The notes below the pieces were generated by a model. It was not told the origin of the DNA, ran no database searches, and saw only the letters and a list, made by a program, of their open reading frames with translations. A stretch of DNA of 64,000 nucleotides from Escherichia coli (GTDB taxonomy: Bacteria > Pseudomonadota > Gammaproteobacteria > Enterobacterales > Enterobacteriaceae), in assembly GCF_041248615.1 (NCBI RefSeq), contig NZ_CP158426.1; one strand, written 5' to 3'. The position numbers and the translations under genes are program-made. Numbering within the stretch: the stretch's first letter is position 1; the number at the start of each line of letters is the position of its first letter. Positions 15,651-50,934 of this stretch are shown here, one piece after another.

Positions 15651-15690
15651 CGCACAGAATGTGATGTCAGCACTCTGTGCGTCTGCTTTT
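15651..15690 (+). terminator. terminator-like hairpin after eamA (GCACAGA...TCTGTGC followed by a T-rich tract)
   Basis: read directly; approximate coordinates. Confidence 0.35.
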
Positions 15691-16387
15691 ATCGCGGGAA
15701 AAAGTACTTTACCTGGAACTCGAAAATATTGCTGTAAAGTAACGAATAATCCAGCGGAATAGAGTTACTGTCCACAGCCTGGGTCTGAATTTTAAGTATG
15801 GGATCCCGTGGGCTGATCCGTAAAATACTGGCGATTTCTGGGGTAGGAAAAGTAGGGGAGAAAGTTTCAAAGGTGCCAATGATTTTGATCCCGCATTCGT
15901 TCTCAATATACGAAAATTTGGATTTTTGCATATGTGCTACGGTTAAATCAGGAAAACGTGCCACTGACATCCACGTTTCTTCTAATTGTGCTGCATTATC
16001 CTCAATGAATCGCAGTCTCTTTATGTAATAAACCTGCTCACCAGTCACTAAATTCAGCTCAGTCGCAATAGGGGGAGAAGCATCCTGCACTTCAAATTTC
16101 ATAATCTGACTTCCTGCCTCCTTGCCGCTTTTATGCGCAATTTCACTGAAGCTGTTCATGTGATCAATGTGTGCAACAAAATTCTTTTTTTGAATATATG
16201 TTCCTGAACCATGCTTTCTATGAATAATTCCTTCGCCTTCCAGCAAGGATAATGCCTTACGCAGGGTATTACGCGAAACATTATAACGAACAGCGAGTTC
16301 AGCTTCTGACGGCAACAAATCACCAACATGCCATGAATAGCCATTGATCTCGGATTTAAGTAAGCGGGCAATCTTTTGAAAAATCAC
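15689..16387 (-). CDS. GntR/HutC-family regulator (HTH plus UTRA domain), bgcR-like
   Basis: 232-aa ORF, probably GTG-initiated; HTH near residues 25-60; divergent from the PTS genes. Confidence 0.7.
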   Translation of the reverse strand: MIFQKIARLLKSEINGYSWHVGDLLPSEAELAVRYNVSRNTLRKALSLLEGEGIIHRKHGSGTYIQKKNFVAHIDHMNSFSEIAHKSGKEAGSQIMKFEVQDASPPIATELNLVTGEQVYYIKRLRFIEDNAAQLEETWMSVARFPDLTVAHMQKSKFSYIENECGIKIIGTFETFSPTFPTPEIASILRISPRDPILKIQTQAVDSNSIPLDYSLLYSNIFEFQVKYFFPR

Positions 16388-16585
16388 TTTTGCACCTTTT
16401 AAGAGCCATTGAAAACAAGGAGTTGAGTCCTGATTGGTTTATCGTATGGTCGAGTCGTTTAATTATCACCCTGATGTTGAACAACTTTAGTGCTGTATTA
16501 CTGTGATCAATGTACCAGGACGTATAGCTACTGCGGGATATGATATTTACACAATGTAATCTGTTATATACCAGTAAGGGAAAAT

Positions 16586-16897
16586 ATGAAAAAGATATTG
16601 TTAGTTTGCGCTGCGGGCATGTCAACCAGTATGCTGGTTAAACGTATGATTGATCATGCTAACGCTATTTCACTTGAAGTTAATATTTCCGCATTGGCGA
16701 TTGCAGAGGCTAAAGGGAAAATTAAAAATAACGAAGTTGACGTTGTTTTACTTGGCCCGCAAGTTCGCTTTCAGAAACCAGAGATTGAAGCTGTTGCACA
16801 GGGGAAAATGCCTGTAGCTGTTATCGAGATGAAAGACTATGGCACCATGAACGGACAGGCAGTTCTTGAATTTGCGATGAAACTACTGCAAGAGTAA
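16586..16897 (+). CDS. PTS lactose/cellobiose-family EIIB component
   Basis: 103-aa ORF; N-terminal KILLVCAAGMSTS phospho-cysteine motif. Confidence 0.8.
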   Translation: MKKILLVCAAGMSTSMLVKRMIDHANAISLEVNISALAIAEAKGKIKNNEVDVVLLGPQVRFQKPEIEAVAQGKMPVAVIEMKDYGTMNGQAVLEFAMKLLQE

Positions 16898-17010
16898 GAA
16901 TCTAATATTATTAAACTATTACCTGAACTAACTTTTCACACATCATAAAATGGATATGGCATACATGCTTTATTGGGATGTATAAATATCCAGAACAACA
17001 GGTATAAAAA

Positions 17011-18333
17011 ATGGGATTAATGACCTCATTCGAACGTGGAATGGAACGTTTTCTTGTTCCAGTTGCTATCAAGTTAAACTCACAAAAACATGTTGCAGCG
17101 GTGAGAGATGGATTCGTTTTTACGTTTCCAATTATCATGGCAAGCTCATTAATTATATTAATTAACTTTGCCATATTATCGCCCGACGGCTTTATTGCCG
17201 GGCTGCTGCATCTGAACCGCGTTTTCCCCAACCTTGAAAAAGCACAAGCTATTTTTACTCCGGTAATGAATGGCTCTGTAAATATCATGTCAATTATGAT
17301 TGCTTTCCTGGTCGCCAGAAATATGGCGATTAGCTATGAGCAAGATGATCTTTTATGCGGATTAACGGCAATAGGAGCATTTTTTATTGTTTATACGCCA
17401 TATCAGATGATAGATGGGCAAGCATTCCTGACGACCAAATATCTCGGCGCACAGGGGTTGTTTGTTGCTGTTATCGTTGCATTAATCACCAGTGAAATAT
17501 TTTGTCGCTTAGCTCGAAACCCAAAAATCACCATAACGATGCCGGCAGCTGTACCTCCTGCGGTATCGCGTTCATTTAAAGTTTTATTGCCAATATTTTT
17601 TGTCATGGTGTTCTTTTCCGCACTTAATTATTGCCTGACACTGATATCCCCGGCAGGATTAAACGATCTCATTTACACATTAATCCAGACGCCGCTCAAA
17701 CATATGGGAACGAATATCTTTGCGGTAATTATCCTGGGGGCTGTGGGTAATTTCCTGTGGGTGCTGGGGATCCACGGACCTAATACCACCTCGGCAATTC
17801 GAGAAACTGTTTTTTCTGAGGCTAATCTGGAGAATCTCTCCTGGGCCGCTCAACACGGCACTACCTGGGGCGCGCCATATCCGATTACCTGGACTTCTAT
17901 TAATGATGCATTCGCCAACTGCGGCGGTTCAGGTATGACGTTGGGGTTATTGTTGGCTATTTTTATCGCGTCTAAGCGTGCGGAATACCGTGATCTGGCA
18001 AAAATGTCGTTTATCCCCGGTATTTTCAATATCAATGAACCGATAATGTTCGGCCTTCCTATTGTACTTAACCCCATCATGATGGTGCCGTTTATTCTGG
18101 TTCCCATTGTTAACTGTGCCATTGGTTACTTCTTTGTTTCGATGGAAATTATTCCACCGGTTGCTTATGCCGTGCCCTGGACTACGCCCGGACCTTTAAT
18201 TGCTTTCCTCGGAACCGGGGGAAACTGGTTGGCGTTACTGGTGGGTTTTTTATGTTTAGGTGTGGCGACAATGATCTATTTACCTTTTGTTATTGCCGCC
18301 AACAAGGTCAATAACATGACAACTAACGGATAA
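17011..18333 (+). CDS. PTS lactose/cellobiose-family EIIC permease
   Basis: 440-aa polytopic membrane ORF typical of cellobiose-type EIIC. Confidence 0.8.
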   Translation: MGLMTSFERGMERFLVPVAIKLNSQKHVAAVRDGFVFTFPIIMASSLIILINFAILSPDGFIAGLLHLNRVFPNLEKAQAIFTPVMNGSVNIMSIMIAFLVARNMAISYEQDDLLCGLTAIGAFFIVYTPYQMIDGQAFLTTKYLGAQGLFVAVIVALITSEIFCRLARNPKITITMPAAVPPAVSRSFKVLLPIFFVMVFFSALNYCLTLISPAGLNDLIYTLIQTPLKHMGTNIFAVIILGAVGNFLWVLGIHGPNTTSAIRETVFSEANLENLSWAAQHGTTWGAPYPITWTSINDAFANCGGSGMTLGLLLAIFIASKRAEYRDLAKMSFIPGIFNINEPIMFGLPIVLNPIMMVPFILVPIVNCAIGYFFVSMEIIPPVAYAVPWTTPGPLIAFLGTGGNWLALLVGFLCLGVATMIYLPFVIAANKVNNMTTNG

Positions 18334-18360
18334 TCCCATTTACACAGGAAGGAGATGTTG

Positions 18361-18672
18361 ATGTTTGCAGATGAAGAACTTGTTATGGAGTTACTGATCA
18401 ACGCGGGACAGGCACGTTCTGATGCGATGGAAGCCATACGTTGTGCCGGGCAAAAAGACTGGCAGGGCGCAACTCAGCTAATGGCCAGTTCGGAATTAGC
18501 CTGTCTTCAGGCACATAAGATTCAGACCGCGTTAATTAGTCAGGATGAAGGTTGTGGCAAAATAGAAGTTAATTTAATTCTGGTTCATGCACAGGATCAT
18601 TTGATGAATGCAATATTATGCCAGGATTTAGCCAGGGAAATTATTTCATTAAGAAAAGAGCTCCATGCCTGA
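18361..18672 (+). CDS. PTS lactose/cellobiose-family EIIA component
   Basis: ORF track 18355..18672; ATG at 18361 has better spacing from GGAG; about 103 aa, EIIA-Lac-like. Confidence 0.75.
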   Translation: MFADEELVMELLINAGQARSDAMEAIRCAGQKDWQGATQLMASSELACLQAHKIQTALISQDEGCGKIEVNLILVHAQDHLMNAILCQDLAREIISLRKELHA

Positions 18673-18724
18673 TTTTTTCCTCCAGTGCGATAGCTGGAGG
18701 AAATTATTACACTCTTAAGGATAA

Positions 18725-22845
<4,121 letters not shown>

Positions 22846-22875
22846 TGAGACTTCAGGAAGATATTACGGAGATAT

Positions 22876-22904: not shown

Positions 22905-23123
22905 CTACATAGCGTGTTGATTATAATAGGGCACGCCGAGCGCATCCGACTTATCACTGCCAGTACCCATGTGATTTAAATCAAACGGTGGTTGTTCCTG
23001 CGATGGGGGAACAACCACGACATTGGCACAGGAAGTAACAACCGGCTGCGTGGTTTGTTCCGCAATGCCCTGCGTGGAAAAGAGAATAAACGCAGCTGCT
23101 ATTGCGGATAAAAGTGGTTTCAT
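22905..23123 (-). CDS. marB: multiple antibiotic resistance protein MarB (periplasmic)
   Basis: 72-aa ORF with signal peptide; recognised as MarB. Confidence 0.85.
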   Translation of the reverse strand: MKPLLSAIAAAFILFSTQGIAEQTTQPVVTSCANVVVVPPSQEQPPFDLNHMGTGSDKSDALGVPYYNQHAM

Positions 23124-23154: not shown

Positions 23155-23538
23155 CTAGCTGTTGTAATGATTTAATGGATGTAAAAAGCGCGATTCGCCC
23201 TGCATATTGGTCATCCGGTATTTATGTGGCGGAACATCAAAGTAATTTTTGAAGGTTCGGGTCAGAGTTTGTTGCGACTCGAAGCCATATCGTTCTGCCA
23301 GATAGAGTATCGGCTCGTTACTTTCCTTCAGCTTTTGCGCGATTTCCGTCATCTTACGGCTGCGGATGTATTGGCCTAATGAATGACCGGTTTCTTTTTT
23401 AAACATCCGTTGCAGGTGCCATTTAGAGTAACCCGAACGCTCTGACACTTTCTCCAGTGACAGTGGCGATTCCAGGTTGTCCTCGATCCAGTCCAAAATG
23501 CTATGAATGGTAATAGCGTCAGTATTGCGTCTGGACAT
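23155..23538 (-). CDS. marA: AraC/XylS-family transcriptional activator MarA
   Basis: ORF track 23155..23544; ATG at 23538 gives the 127-aa [22 protein letters not shown] start. Confidence 0.9.
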
Positions 23539-23558
23539 CGTCATACCTCTTTTTTTGT

Positions 23559-23993
23559 TTACGGCAGGACTTTCTTAAGCAAATGCTCAAGTGTTGCCAC
23601 TTCGTCCGCCGTCAGGTTTTTTGTTAATTCTTGATGCAGGTCCTGGCCAACTAATTGATGGCATTGTTCACATATTGCCGCGCCGCTGGTGGTAAGTTTT
23701 ACCAGTACGCCGCGCTTGTCATTCGGGTTCGGCAACCTTTCCACCCAGCCTTTACAGACCAGGCGATCCAGCATACGGGTCAGCGCCCCCAGGTCGACCG
23801 ATAACACTCTTTTCAGTTCAACCGGAGTAATACACGCCGCGCAGCGGATAGAGCAGAGCACCTTAAACTGTGCCGCGGTAATATCCAGCGGAGACAGATA
23901 CTCGTTAAGCAGGCGATCTTTCTTCTGATTAACCATATGGATTAAGCGACCCAATGGAATAATTTCATTGAACAGATCGCTGGTACTTTTCAC
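23559..23993 (-). CDS. marR: repressor MarR (carries K62R, G103S, Y137H relative to the K-12 sequence as I recall it)
   Basis: 144-aa ORF, GTG-initiated; residues counted directly from the translation. Confidence 0.9.
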
Positions 23994-23998
23994 ATTAG

Positions 23999-24045
23999 TT
24001 GCCCTGGCAAGTAATTAGTTGCAGGGGATAATATTGCCCAGGCAA
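23999..24045. promoter_or_regulatory. marO: two MarR operator palindromes (TTGCCCTGGCAA at 23999..24010; TTGCCCAGGCAA at 24034..24045)
   Basis: both palindromes read directly immediately upstream of marR. Confidence 0.7.
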
Positions 24046-24067
24046 GTATAAGTCAAATGAATGAATT

Positions 24068-24092
24068 GACCGATGCCACGTTTTGCTAAATC
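24068..24092 (-). promoter_or_regulatory. marbox (MarA/SoxS/Rob binding site) upstream of the marRAB promoter
   Basis: minus-strand GATTTAGCAAAACGTGGCATCGGTC matches the marbox as I recall it. Confidence 0.6.
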
Positions 24093-24204
24093 GGTTCAAG
24101 TTTTGGTCAGTGCGATGCAAGGCTAGCTAAAGAGTGACACTTTATCGTTGTTTACCCCTTATACTTTTCGCTGATAACCCAGATACACAGGATAACAACC
24201 ACCA

Positions 24205-24870
24205 ATGTTAGATTTATTTAAAGCAATTGGCCTGGGGCTGGTGGTGTTACTACCGTTAGCTAACCCATTAACAACTGTCGCGTTATTTCTTGGCCTGGCA
24301 GGCAACATGAACAGTGCCGAACGTAATCGTCAGTCGTTGATGGCCTCGGTGTACGTCTTTGCCATCATGATGGTGGCGTATTACGCCGGGCAACTGGTGA
24401 TGGATACATTTGGCATTTCGATTCCCGGTCTGCGAATTGCAGGCGGCTTAATCGTCGCGTTTATCGGTTTTCGGATGCTCTTTCCGCAACAGAAAGCAAT
24501 TGATTCACCGGAAGCGAAAAGCAAGTCGGAAGAGCTGGAAGATGAACCCAGCGCCAATATTGCTTTTGTACCACTGGCAATGCCAAGTACCGCCGGTCCG
24601 GGAACCATAGCGATGATTATTAGCTCGGCGTCCACAGTGCGTCAGAGTTCAACCTTTGCTGATTGGGTACTGATGGTTGCGCCGCCGCTGATCTTTTTCC
24701 TGGTGGCGGTTATTTTGTGGGGAAGTCTACGCAGCTCTGGCGCAATTATGCGGCTGGTGGGTAAGGGGGGCATTGAAGCGATCTCCCGTCTGATGGGATT
24801 CCTGCTGGTATGTATGGGGGTGCAGTTTATTATTAACGGCATCCTGGAAATCATTAAAACGTACCACTAA
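24205..24870 (+). CDS. marC: inner-membrane protein MarC (UPF0056/MarC family)
   Basis: 221-aa membrane ORF divergent from marRAB. Confidence 0.9.
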
Positions 24871-45513: not shown

Positions 45514-48500
45514 ATGAATAGAATCTATCGCGTGATATGGAATTGCACCCTACAGGCATTTCAGGTCTGCTCGGAATTAACTCGCAGGGTAGGTAAAACA
45601 TCGACGGTTAATTTGCGTAAATCCTCTGGGCTGACAACGAAATTCAGTAGATTGACGCTGGGTGTTTTGCTGGCACTAAGCGGTTCAGCGTCTGGTGCGA
45701 GTCTGGAAGTTGATAATGATCAGATTACCAATATTGATACTGATGTTGCTTATGATGCCTACCTGGTTGGCTGGTATGGCACTGGAGTGCTTAATATTTT
45801 GGCTGGCGGTAATGCCTCCTTAACCACTATTACTACCAGCGTCATTGGTGGTAATGAGAACTCGAAGGGCACCGTTAATGTTTTGGGTGGCACCTGGCGA
45901 TTGTATGATAGCGGAAATAATGCAAGGCCTTTAAATGTGGGCCAATCCGGAACGGGGATGCTGAATATTAAACAGAAGGGGCACGTTGATGGAGGCTATT
46001 TAAGATTAGGTACTCAAGCTGTAGGCGTCGGGATGGTTAATGTTGAGGGAGAGGACTCGGTTCTGACGACGGAGTTATTCGAAATAGGTAGCTATGGCAC
46101 AGGTTCATTAAATATTACGGATAAGGCTTATGTCACGAGTTCAATCGTCGCCATTTTAGGCTATCAGACGGGCAGTAATGGCCAGGTTGTCGTTGAAAAG
46201 GGCGGTGAGTGGCTAATAAAAAATAACGATTCCTCAATTGAATTTCAAATTGGTAATCAAGGAACTGGGGAAGCGACTATTCGCGAGGGTGGGCTGATTA
46301 CGGCTGAAAATACGATTATCGGTGGCAATGCCACCGGTATCGGAACCCTGAATGTGCAGGATCAAGACTCTGTCATCACGGTACGCAGACTCTATAATGG
46401 ATATTTCGGTAATGGCACAGTCAATATTTCCAATAATGGACTGATTAATAATAAAGAATATTCATTGGTGGGCGTTCAGGACGGTTCCCACGGTGTCGTC
46501 AACGTGACTGATAAAGGGCATTGGAATTTCCTCGGAACGGGCGAAGCTTTCCGCTATATCTATATCGGTGATGCTGGCGATGGTGAACTTAATGTCTCGA
46601 GTGAAGGCAAAGTAGATTCGGGAATTATCACTGCGGGGATGAAAGAAACAGGCACAGGCAACATTACTGTTAAGGATAAGAACTCCGTTATCACTAATCT
46701 CGGAACTAATCTTGGTTATGACGGCCACGGCGAAATGAATATCAGTAATGAGGGGCTTGTTGTCAGCAACGGAGGAAGTTCACTCGGTTATGGAGAAACC
46801 GGCGTCGGGAAGGTTAGCATCACCACGGGGGGGATGTGGGAGGTCAATAAGAATGTCTATACCACCATTGGTGTTGCGGGCGTCGGAAACCTCAATATTA
46901 GCGATGGCGGTAAGTTTGTATCGCAAAATATTACTTTTTTGGGCGATAAAGCAAGCGGTATCGGCACACTGAACCTGATGGATGCGACATCATCGTTCGA
47001 TACTGTAGGTATCAATGTCGGTAATTTTGGTAGCGGCATCGTAAATGTCAGTAATGGTGCCACCCTTAATTCAACGGGCTATGGATTTATCGGAGGAAAT
47101 GCCTCCGGTAAGGGGATAGTTAATATTTCAACGGATAGTCTCTGGAATTTAAAAACGTCATCTACTAACGCCCAATTGCTACAGGTCGGTGTATTAGGCG
47201 CGGGTGAACTGAATATTACCACCGGAGGTATAGTTAAAGCGCGTGATACACAAATAGCTCTCAATGACAAAAGTAAGGGCGACGTGCGGGTGGATGGGCA
47301 GAACTCTCTTCTTGAAGCATTCAATATGAACGTAGGGACGACAGGCACGGGTACGTTAACCCTGACGAATAACGGTACGCTGAATGTCGAAGGTGGAGAG
47401 GTTTACTTAGGTGTTTTTGAGCCTGCTGTAGGAACGCTAAACATTGGTGCTGCTCACGGTGAGGCGGCGGTAGATGCCGGGTTTATCACCAACGCGACGA
47501 AAGTAGAGTTTGGCTCTGGCGAAGGTGTTTTTGTCTTTAATCATACTAATAACAGTGATGCCGGCTACCAGGTCTATATGCTGATTACAGGTGACGATAA
47601 AGACGGAAAAGTGATCCATGATGCAGGCCATACGGTGTTCAATGCAGGGAATACTTATAGCGGTAAAACGTTGGTCAATGACGGCCTCCTGACCATTGCG
47701 TCTCATACGGCAGATGGGGTAACGGGCATGGGTTCGAGTGAAGTAACCATTGCAAACCCCGGTACGCTCGACATTCTCGCATCAACGAACAGTGCAGGAG
47801 ATTACACGCTGACCAATGCGCTCAAAGGCGATGGCTTGATGCGAGTGCAGCTGTCATCCTCCGACAAAATGTTTGGCTTTACCCATGCAACAGGAACTGA
47901 ATTCGCCGGTGTTGCCCAACTGAAAGACAGTACCTTCGCACTGGAACGCGACAACACCGCTGCGCTTACTCACGCGATGCTGCAGTCTGACAGTGAAAAT
48001 ACCACATCGGTAAAAGTGGGAGAGCAATCCATTGGTGGACTAGCCATGAATGGCGGTACGCTCACTTTCGATACGGATATACCTGCTGCGACGCTTGCGG
48101 AGGGATATATCAGCGTCGATACACTGGTTGTCGGCGCGGGTGACTACACCTGGAAAGGCCGTAACTATCAGGTAAACGGGACGGGCGACGTGCTTATCGA
48201 CGTGCCTAAACCGTGGAATGATCCCATGGCGAATAACCCTCTGACGACGCTCAATTTGCTGGAACACGATGATAGCCATGTCGGCGTTCAACTGGTGAAG
48301 GCGCAAACGGTTATTGGGTCGGGTGGCTCATTAACGTTACGTGATTTACAGGGCGACGAGGTGGAAGCGGACAAAACGTTACATATTGCACAAAACGGGA
48401 CAGTGGTCGCCGAGGGTGATTATGGATTCCGCCTCACGACCGCACCTGGTGATGGTTTGTATGTTAACTATGGGCTGAAAGCGCTGAACATCCATGGTGG

Positions 48501-50934
48501 GCAAAAGCTGACGTTAGCCGAACATGGCGGAGCCTATGGCGCAACGGCCGATATGTCGGCAAAAATCGGTGGTGAAGGGGATCTGGCAATCAATACGGTG
48601 CGACAGGTTTCGCTTTCTAACGGTCAGAACGACTATCAGGGGGCAACCTACGTTCAGATGGGGACATTACGTACCGATGCGGATGGCGCGCTGGGCAATA
48701 CTCGGGAACTGAACATCAGCAACGCGGCCATCGTCGATCTTAATGGATCGGCCCAGACGGTAGAGACATTCACCGGGCTGATGGGTTCGACTGTTTTGTT
48801 TAAAGAGGGGTCGCTGACGGTAAATAAAGGTGGGATCAGTCAGGGTGAACTGACAGGTGGCGGAAACCTGAATGTTACAGGGGGAACGCTGGCTATCGAG
48901 GGGCTTAATGCACGCTACAATGCGTTAACCAGCGTTAGCCCAAATGCGGAAGTCAGCCTCGATAATACGCAGGGGTTAGGCAGAGGAAATATTGCCAATG
49001 ACGGTCTGTTAACGCTAAAAAACGTGACTGGCGAACTGCGCAATAGCATAAGCGGGAAGGGTATCGTGAGCGCAACCGCCAGGACAGATGTAGAGCTGGA
49101 TGGCGATAATAGCCGCTTTGTGGGGCAATTCAACATTGATACAGGCAGCGCGCTCAGCGTCAACGAGCAGAAAAACTTGGGTGATGCTTCCGTTATCAAT
49201 AATGGCCTGCTCACCATCTCCACTGAGCGTAGCTGGGCGATGACGCACAATATCAGCGGTAGCGGTGATGTGACAAAACTGGGTACCGGGATCCTGACTC
49301 TTAACAAAGATTCCGCGGCGTATCAGGGTACGACGGATATCGTGGGTGGTGAAATTGCTTTCGGTTCCGACTCTGCCATTAATATGGCAAGTCAGCACAT
49401 TAATATCCATAACAGCGGTGTGATGTCGGGAAATGTCACCACTGCAGGTGATGTGAACGTTATGCCAGGGGGGACACTGCGTGTCGCTAAAACCACTGTC
49501 GGCGGTAACCTGGAGAATGGTGGCACGGTTCAAATGAACAGCGAAGGGGGGAAACCGGGGAATGTACTGACCGTTAACGGTAACTATACCGGAAACAATG
49601 GCCTGATGACGTTCAACGCGACGCTGGGCGGCGATAATTCGCCCACCGATAAGATGAACGTGAAAGGCGATACCCAAGGGAATACTCGCGTTCGGGTTGA
49701 TAACATTGGCGGCGTCGGTGCACAAACGGTCAACGGTATTGAACTCATTGAGGTCGGCGGTAATTCTGCAGGTAACTTCGCGCTGACCACCGGAACTGTC
49801 GAAGCTGGGGCTTACGTCTACACGCTGGCTAAAGGGAAGGGGAATGACGAGAAAAACTGGTATCTGACCAGTAAATGGGACGGCGTAACGCCAGCGGATA
49901 CACCCGATCCCATCAATAATCCCCCTGTTGTGGATCCGGAAGGCCCATCAGTTTATCGCCCGGAGGCCGGAAGCTATATCAGCAACATTGCCGCAGCCAA
50001 CTCGCTGTTTAGCCATCGCTTACACGACCGTCTGGGTGAGCCGCAGTATACAGATTCACTGCATTCTCAGGGTTCGGCAAGCAGTATGTGGATGCGTCAT
50101 GTCGGAGGGCACGAACGTTCAAGGGCCGGTGACGGTCAGCTAAATACTCAGGCTAACCGCTATGTATTGCAGCTAGGCGGCGATTTGGCGCAGTGGAGTA
50201 GCATCGCGCAGGATCGCTGGCATCTCGGCGTCATGGCAGGCTATGCCAATCAGCACAGTAATACTCAGAGTAATCGTGTGGGTTATAAATCGGATGGGCG
50301 CATCAGCGGGTACAGCGCTGGGATTTACGCGACCTGGTATCAGAACGATGCGAATAAGACCGGCGCTTATGTTGACAGCTGGGCGCTGTATAACTGGTTT
50401 GATAACAGCGTCAGTTCCGATAACCGTTCTGCTGACGACTATGATTCTCGCGGTGTGACGGCCTCTGTTGAGGGTGGGTATACCTTTGAAGCGGGAACAT
50501 TTAGCGGCAGCGAAGGGACGCTGAATACCTGGTACGTCCAGCCACAGGCGCAAATCACCTGGATGGGTGTGAAAGATTCTGACCATACCCGGAAAGACGG
50601 AACACGCATTGAAACGGAAGGCGACGGAAACGTGCAAACGCGACTTGGGGTGAAAACCTACCTGAACAGTCATCACCAGCGTGACAATGGTAAACAGCGT
50701 GAGTTCCAGCCTTACATTGAAGCGAACTGGATCAACAACAGCAAAGTCTACGCCGTGAAGATGAATGGTCAAACCGTAAGCCGTGATGGTGCGCGTAATC
50801 TCGGTGAAGTACGTACCGGGGTTGAGGCGAAAGTAAATAACAACCTTAGCCTGTGGGGGAATGTCGGTGTGCAACTAGGTGATAAAGGCTATAGCGATAC
50901 TCAGGGCATGCTGGGTGTGAAATATAGCTGGTAA
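45514..50934 (+). CDS. type Va (AIDA-I-like) autotransporter adhesin, intact 1806-aa ORF
   Basis: extended signal peptide MNRIYRVIWNCTLQAFQV...; long passenger with repetitive G-T-G-x-L-N-I beta-helix units; C-terminal barrel ending YSW. Confidence 0.8.
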   Translation: MNRIYRVIWNCTLQAFQVCSELTRRVGKTSTVNLRKSSGLTTKFSRLTLGVLLALSGSASGASLEVDNDQITNIDTDVAYDAYLVGWYGTGVLNILAGGNASLTTITTSVIGGNENSKGTVNVLGGTWRLYDSGNNARPLNVGQSGTGMLNIKQKGHVDGGYLRLGTQAVGVGMVNVEGEDSVLTTELFEIGSYGTGSLNITDKAYVTSSIVAILGYQTGSNGQVVVEKGGEWLIKNNDSSIEFQIGNQGTGEATIREGGLITAENTIIGGNATGIGTLNVQDQDSVITVRRLYNGYFGNGTVNISNNGLINNKEYSLVGVQDGSHGVVNVTDKGHWNFLGTGEAFRYIYIGDAGDGELNVSSEGKVDSGIITAGMKETGTGNITVKDKNSVITNLGTNLGYDGHGEMNISNEGLVVSNGGSSLGYGETGVGKVSITTGGMWEVNKNVYTTIGVAGVGNLNISDGGKFVSQNITFLGDKASGIGTLNLMDATSSFDTVGINVGNFGSGIVNVSNGATLNSTGYGFIGGNASGKGIVNISTDSLWNLKTSSTNAQLLQVGVLGAGELNITTGGIVKARDTQIALNDKSKGDVRVDGQNSLLEAFNMNVGTTGTGTLTLTNNGTLNVEGGEVYLGVFEPAVGTLNIGAAHGEAAVDAGFITNATKVEFGSGEGVFVFNHTNNSDAGYQVYMLITGDDKDGKVIHDAGHTVFNAGNTYSGKTLVNDGLLTIASHTADGVTGMGSSEVTIANPGTLDILASTNSAGDYTLTNALKGDGLMRVQLSSSDKMFGFTHATGTEFAGVAQLKDSTFALERDNTAALTHAMLQSDSENTTSVKVGEQSIGGLAMNGGTLTFDTDIPAATLAEGYISVDTLVVGAGDYTWKGRNYQVNGTGDVLIDVPKPWNDPMANNPLTTLNLLEHDDSHVGVQLVKAQTVIGSGGSLTLRDLQGDEVEADKTLHIAQNGTVVAEGDYGFRLTTAPGDGLYVNYGLKALNIHGGQKLTLAEHGGAYGATADMSAKIGGEGDLAINTVRQVSLSNGQNDYQGATYVQMGTLRTDADGALGNTRELNISNAAIVDLNGSAQTVETFTGLMGSTVLFKEGSLTVNKGGISQGELTGGGNLNVTGGTLAIEGLNARYNALTSVSPNAEVSLDNTQGLGRGNIANDGLLTLKNVTGELRNSISGKGIVSATARTDVELDGDNSRFVGQFNIDTGSALSVNEQKNLGDASVINNGLLTISTERSWAMTHNISGSGDVTKLGTGILTLNKDSAAYQGTTDIVGGEIAFGSDSAINMASQHINIHNSGVMSGNVTTAGDVNVMPGGTLRVAKTTVGGNLENGGTVQMNSEGGKPGNVLTVNGNYTGNNGLMTFNATLGGDNSPTDKMNVKGDTQGNTRVRVDNIGGVGAQTVNGIELIEVGGNSAGNFALTTGTVEAGAYVYTLAKGKGNDEKNWYLTSKWDGVTPADTPDPINNPPVVDPEGPSVYRPEAGSYISNIAAANSLFSHRLHDRLGEPQYTDSLHSQGSASSMWMRHVGGHERSRAGDGQLNTQANRYVLQLGGDLAQWSSIAQDRWHLGVMAGYANQHSNTQSNRVGYKSDGRISGYSAGIYATWYQNDANKTGAYVDSWALYNWFDNSVSSDNRSADDYDSRGVTASVEGGYTFEAGTFSGSEGTLNTWYVQPQAQITWMGVKDSDHTRKDGTRIETEGDGNVQTRLGVKTYLNSHHQRDNGKQREFQPYIEANWINNSKVYAVKMNGQTVSRDGARNLGEVRTGVEAKVNNNLSLWGNVGVQLGDKGYSDTQGMLGVKYSW

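Follow-up and report, generated by a model that had tools for sequence, protein, structure and literature searches.

A natural marR allele, with R62 probably inherited by descent in phylogroup D, in an intact Escherichia coli mar locus

The marR gene within the 64-kb stretch of Escherichia coli DNA analysed here (the window) is very probably an intact, ordinary marR that carries a natural allele of phylogroup D, with marO unaltered and R62 acquired by descent, a reading to which we assign a probability of about 0.88. Its product differs from K-12 MarR by K62R, G103S and Y137H (hereafter the trio), three changes that are natural polymorphisms with no evidence of causing resistance. R62 is the sole lineage-informative residue of the three. 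These variants are already known and nothing about them is new here; the only useful correction concerns reference bias and the lineage to which the allele is assigned.

Results

The marR coding sequence

MarR is the repressor of marRAB, and salicylate or Cu(II) oxidation of Cys80 releases it. In the window the gene occupies 23559..23993 on the minus strand, where the list of open reading frames gives a 144-aa frame with a GTG start that is intact and full length, and the plus-strand reading of the same interval is riddled with stop codons. By every testable criterion the gene is E. coli marR. The protein scores 319 bits against the NCBIfam MarR equivalog NF008565 (cut-off 240) with coverage of residues 1-144 of 144, and it aligns to the wild-type chain of PDB 3VOE (E=8.5e-92) with differences at 62, 103 and 137 alone, Cys80 being kept. 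The gene order is that of the mar locus, with marC, marO and marR-marA-marB in succession and with sites I and II in marO as in K-12, and both the AlphaFold2 model and the 3VOE match display the winged helix-turn-helix fold, flanked by dimerisation helices at the N and C termini. Around mar, 17 kb of the window, a nearby IS element included, match NZ_LT599825.1 at 100% in one piece; this record, the chromosome of the E. coli isolate NRZ14408, encodes the identical protein, WP_000843422.1, annotated marR.

Compared with K-12 MG1655 (NC_000913.3), the coding sequence carries 9 nt differences, exactly three of which alter the protein. Codon 62 (23808..23810, minus strand) is AGA for Arg where K-12 has AAG and most other lineages have AAA, both for Lys; codon 103 (23685..23687, minus strand) is AGC for Ser in place of GGC for Gly; and codon 137 (23583..23585, minus strand) is CAT for His in place of TAT for Tyr. 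A first-pass annotation made from the DNA alone, which named no strand, had counted R62, S103 and H137 in the translation, and the alignments to MG1655 and 3VOE confirm all three; K-12 itself has K62, G103 and Y137, so the objection that it might share the window's residues falls away. Chance is of no concern, because the allele was read directly and is common to hundreds of genomes.

The mar operator and neighbouring genes

The regulatory elements of marRAB all lie on the minus strand and are unchanged. The marO MarR-binding site II, assigned as such from what is established about marO, is at 23994..24013, site I at 24028..24048 overlaps the -10, the promoter -35 hexamer TTGACT is at 24051..24056, and the marbox, the site for MarA/SoxS/Rob, is at 24073..24092. 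The marbox, the -35 and both binding sites have the same sequence as in K-12 and five other lineages, and the -10 is identical to that of K-12, which bears out the earlier statement that the operator palindromes and marbox are intact. Across the 211-nt marC-marR intergenic region only three SNPs separate the window from K-12 (24147, 24110 and 24106), all of them upstream of the marbox. Those at 24147 and 24110 are private to the window strain among the seven lineages compared, and that at 24106 is common to all non-K-12 strains compared; 24110 is 18 nt and 24106 is 14 nt upstream of the marbox, where reports place an accessory Fis site. The spacer between marR and marA (23539-23558) measures 20 nt in the window versus 19 nt in K-12, O157 and O26, because its A run is A7 rather than A6. 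Three B2 strains have a 20-nt spacer too, but with ACGAAAAAAG, that is, G then A6.

The flanking mar genes differ in how far they have diverged from K-12. Neither marA (23155..23538, minus strand) nor marC (24205..24870, plus strand, divergent from marR) shows any residue change, and marB (22905..23123, minus strand) encodes S5L, L12F, A17T, V20I and H44Q, a difference at 5 of 72 residues that per residue is far above that of MarR, MarA or MarC. Clinical isolates with K62R bear this same five-change MarB set, and a table in the same study has K62R travelling with that set and with SoxR T38S/G74R (PMC8597741), an association that indicates a lineage haplotype.

Directly downstream of marB, an IS3-family (IS2-like) element at ~21090-22420, with transposase ORFs at 21100-22005 and 21963-22373 on the minus strand, interrupts a family-1 glycoside hydrolase (6-phospho-beta-glucosidase) gene. 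The closest IS-free relatives are only 983 bp shorter than the window across this region, homology to the intact glucosidase gene of ABU 83972 restarts at 22421, and nothing matches to the left of the IS, so the insertion seems to have brought with it a deletion of ~350 bp. NZ_LT599825.1 is the only complete genome that matches across the IS in one piece. Between eamA and marB lies a ~7-kb cluster (15689-22848) comprising a GntR regulator, PTS IIB/IIC/IIA, a carbohydrate porin and the GH1 glucosidase. This cluster is absent from K-12, E2348/69, ST131 strain 4993 and O157:H7 Z903, in which eamA comes directly after marB, and is apparently present in ABU 83972 and O26:H11, in which a 6-phospho-beta-glucosidase gene, not eamA, follows marB; given this distribution, its presence does not track phylogroup. 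Elsewhere in the window, positions 45514-50934 hold a 1,806-aa ORF annotated ‘ECSE_1600 family autotransporter’, past which come hipBA (51.1-52.7 kb) and then a run of genes for oxidoreductases and aldo-keto reductases, all of them unrelated to the marR finding.

Population frequency of the three residues

The frequency of each residue was estimated in 5,426 complete E. coli genomes with a 104-nt synthetic query built from three short marR pieces, each with one variant codon at its centre. With a megablast word of 28 nt a piece matches only where the genome has the window allele, and the unequal lengths of the pieces allow the percentage of query coverage to reveal which alleles are present. 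At least one piece matched in 4,224 of the 5,426 genomes, almost always as S103 together with H137, and all three matched in 265 (4.9%), counts in which alleles with an extra nearby SNP are missed by the short pieces. The corresponding figures for the K-12 alleles were 1,405 genomes for any piece and 1,091 for all three, and G103 with Y137 is a minority state of about 1,180 genomes (~22%) that includes K-12. S103/H137 is the majority state of the species, in ~78% of complete E. coli genomes, and K-12 is the outlier. The full trio had been described as common; at 4.9% of complete genomes, that description does not hold.

The 30-nt piece centred on codon 62 fails in many K62 genomes, which have AAA and nearby synonymous SNPs, and the absence of a match is not proof of K62; marR was therefore translated directly from genomes of B2, B1 and E. 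Relative to K-12, MarR has S3N, G103S and Y137H in E2348/69 (B2), V84I, G103S and Y137H in O157:H7 Z903 (E), and G103S and Y137H in ST131 strain 4993 (B2), ABU 83972 (B2) and O26:H11 (B1). All five translated genes encode K62 as AAA, which places the AGA of the window one step from the common codon, where the AAG of K-12 suggests two.

We also looked up the exact protein sequences of all eight combinations of residues 62, 103 and 137 in a collection of 15 billion proteins. The window haplotype (R62/S103/H137), its K62/S103/H137 counterpart and the K-12 haplotype (K62/G103/Y137) were each found on at least 1,000 contigs, K62/G103/H137 on 758 and K62/S103/Y137 on 515, and the remaining R62 combinations on 13 (with G103/H137), 12 (with G103/Y137) and 9 (with S103/Y137). 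The rarity of these last three beside the window haplotype indicates that R62 is nested almost exclusively in an S103/H137 background, and the fairly common K62/G103/H137 and K62/S103/Y137 proteins indicate that positions 103 and 137 are not strictly linked. In a whole-gene search the R62 allele proved nearly invariant in nucleotides, as a single origin would predict. Salmonella MarR has K62, D103 and Y137, and close Escherichia outgroups group with E. coli MarR in one cluster at 90% identity.

Conservation, structural position and function

Across 80 clusters of MarR orthologues (69-99% identity, 144 columns), column 137 is the most variable of all, with an entropy of 2.61 bits, and column 103 is the third most variable, with 2.31 bits, versus a median of 0.48 bits; judged by this variation, both positions are clearly tolerant of change. 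Column 62 holds Lys in 75 of the 80 clusters, Thr in 4 and Arg in 1. K62R is the only change of the trio at a constrained site, yet it conserves charge. In the AlphaFold2 model of the window protein (mean pLDDT 81), which has helices at 57-64 and 68-80, wing strands at 84-88 and 96-100, and terminal helices, R62 falls within helix 57-64, the first of the two that form the helix-turn-helix, S103 where helix 102-124 begins, directly past the wing, and H137 in the C-terminal helix 129-142. A literature search on the structural role of MarR K62 yielded nothing relevant.

The simplest reading of the gene is that it encodes a normally functioning repressor, as predicted from its sequence: the protein would bind sites I and II of the unchanged marO and repress marRAB like its K-12 counterpart. 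S103 and H137 are simply the residues of the species majority, and their positions are among the most variable in MarR. The window marR bears none of the truncations, frameshifts, deletions or disruptive substitutions that define resistance mutants, because the frame is intact at 144 aa, two of the changes fall at hypervariable positions (103 and 137) and that at 62 is conservative. Neutrality of the trio is supported indirectly, by the variability of columns 137 and 103 and by a published isolate. The stool isolate ZE72, which carries the trio, has a levofloxacin MIC of 0.016 µg/mL, equal to that of MG1655, and in the same study G103S and Y137H showed no association with the level of resistance; that study also cites Komp Lindgren et al. 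[quoted passage not shown] Another study classes S3N, K62R, G103S and Y137H as changes that clinical isolates commonly carry and for which no rise in efflux has been demonstrated (PMC8597741).

We considered whether any of the substitutions, with K62R the most plausible candidate, might instead weaken MarR repression and so contribute to the multidrug resistance of NRZ14408, an isolate that is carbapenem- and colistin-resistant according to the title of a paper. Two surveys list the trio changes as inducing AcrAB-TolC overexpression, without allele-specific tests (PMC7546912, PMC8976530), and the trio carriers listed include many multidrug-resistant clinical clones; K62 is moreover conserved among orthologues and lies within the helix-turn-helix, where a quantitative effect on DNA binding is conceivable. 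Set against this, the allele is fixed and near-identical in nucleotides across natural lineages from humans, dogs, gulls, cattle and water, the trio isolate ZE72 is as levofloxacin-susceptible as MG1655, and Lys to Arg retains the charge and has a natural precedent in another orthologue. S103 and H137 are ruled out as resistance mutations by the ~78% of genomes that have them, and for K62R the earlier verdict cited from Komp Lindgren et al. points the same way. We therefore regard a resistance-causing effect as improbable. Also improbable is a subtler effect, in which K62R, by replacing a conserved Lys of helix 57-64 in the helix-turn-helix, may slightly shift operator affinity or inducer sensitivity and thereby alter the basal or inducible mar response of phylogroup D clones; if true, such an effect could favour the repeated rise of ST38 and ST405 as multidrug-resistant lineages. 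An ordinary, functional marR remains the preferred reading, and the initial view that the trio consists of natural polymorphisms rather than resistance mutations, to be told apart from true marR resistance mutations, is upheld.

Lineage of the R62 allele

The literature citing NRZ14408 gives neither a sequence type nor a phylogroup for it, and the genome was therefore typed in silico with the Clermont primers. The markers used were chuA, arpA, yjaA and the group-E-specific arpA; TspE4.C2 offers no discrimination between D and E. In NZ_LT599825.1, chuA lies between yhiD and dctR and yields an in-silico amplicon of 288 bp, and arpA, annotated espL4, is full length, adjoins aceK and gives a 400-bp amplicon. 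The search of the chromosome for Clermont markers found yjaA absent, a call that was made because yjaB lies only 115 bp from the 5S gene (rrf), and the group-E-specific arpA (ArpAgpE) primers both mismatch the chromosome at their 3'-terminal base. The in-silico amplicons of 288, 400 and 301 bp all match the published scheme. The resulting profile, arpA and chuA positive, yjaA negative and group-E arpA PCR negative, is that of phylogroup D, and NRZ14408 types in silico as D; a B2 strain would be arpA negative, chuA positive and usually yjaA positive, a pattern from which this genome departs in being arpA positive and yjaA negative.

Other carriers of the trio agree with this assignment. YDC107 is O102:H6, ST964 and phylogroup D (PMC6035167), WCHEC96200 is ST405 and phylogroup D (PMC5762679), and 28Eco12 and 266917_2 are both ST38 (PMC6963479), a sequence type assigned to phylogroup D (PMC7546912). 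R62 is thus a marker of phylogroup D as far as sampled: of the 265 trio genomes just a handful have an established phylogroup, and published typing covers four listed carriers. Taken together with the haplotype counts, this suggests that R62 arose once, by AAA to AGA on an S103/H137 background, and would since have been passed by descent in D lineages, among them ST38, ST405, ST964 and that of NRZ14408. Of the earlier proposal that the trio serves as a lineage marker, the part concerning R62 stands, and the part concerning S103 and H137 does not, since these are the majority state and occur in B2, B1, E and D alike.

The first-pass annotation had placed the trio in B2-type and extraintestinal isolates, and had itself suggested phylogroup typing of the genome, which, as D, speaks against that placement. 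A MarR haplotype typical of B2 or of extraintestinal pathogenic E. coli (ExPEC) would draw on the fact that B2 strains have G103S and Y137H, two of the trio, and that, of the six reference strains compared, the B2 strain ABU 83972 has the K62 allele closest to that of the window, at 4 nt. All three B2 strains (E2348/69, ST131 strain 4993 and ABU 83972) nevertheless keep K62, the trio carriers with a documented type all belong to phylogroup D, and the source strain, with a full-length arpA beside aceK and no yjaA, does not fit B2 as the Clermont scheme defines it. S103 and H137 are also found in B1 (O26) and E (O157), and, being the species majority, G103S and Y137H mark no ExPEC lineage. On the strains sampled, a trio characteristic of B2 or ExPEC is accordingly very improbable, and descent within phylogroup D is the reading that we retain. 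That the three differences are sequencing or assembly errors in one genome is excluded, since other, independent complete genomes share this marR at 100% identity, the same alleles recur together in 265 genomes and the exact protein is found on at least 1,000 contigs.

Discussion

These observations are of practical, not biological, value. Reports of G103S and Y137H as marR ‘mutations’, some of which credit them with up-regulation of efflux, arise only because K-12, the usual reference strain, bears the minority residues. Knowing that S103/H137 is the state of ~78% of genomes, and that K62R marks descent in phylogroup D, should help keep these changes off lists of resistance mechanisms and free attention for true marR lesions, for example a frameshift, a deletion or a disruptive substitution within the DNA-binding domain.

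Three known systems place the window marR in context. The first is the mar locus of K-12. MarR of K-12 (P27245; PDB 1JGS, 3VOE, 5H3R) and of the window are alike in length, GTG start, 141 of 144 residues and Cys80, and the two loci are alike in operon layout (marC divergent, then marO and marR-marA-marB), in sites I and II, in the promoter and in the marbox. What sets the window apart from K-12 is R62, S103 and H137 in MarR, an additional A between marR and marA, the three intergenic SNPs that precede the marbox and 5 changed residues in MarB. The second is the majority allele WP_000843419.1 (K62/S103/H137), found in ST131, ABU 83972 and O26:H11, which has S103 and H137 in common with the window protein and differs from it by a single residue, K62R (AAA to AGA); at the nucleotide level the B2 copies of this majority allele are 4-5 nt from the window marR. 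The third comprises the clinical loss-of-function mutants, which carry frameshifts, deletions of the Δ97-107 type or substitutions in the DNA-binding domain such as A70E, and which surveys that compare with K-12 likewise call ‘marR mutations’. In contrast to these mutants, the window marR is full length and in frame, with two of its changes at hypervariable positions, and its allele is passed down through whole lineages instead of emerging in single resistant isolates.
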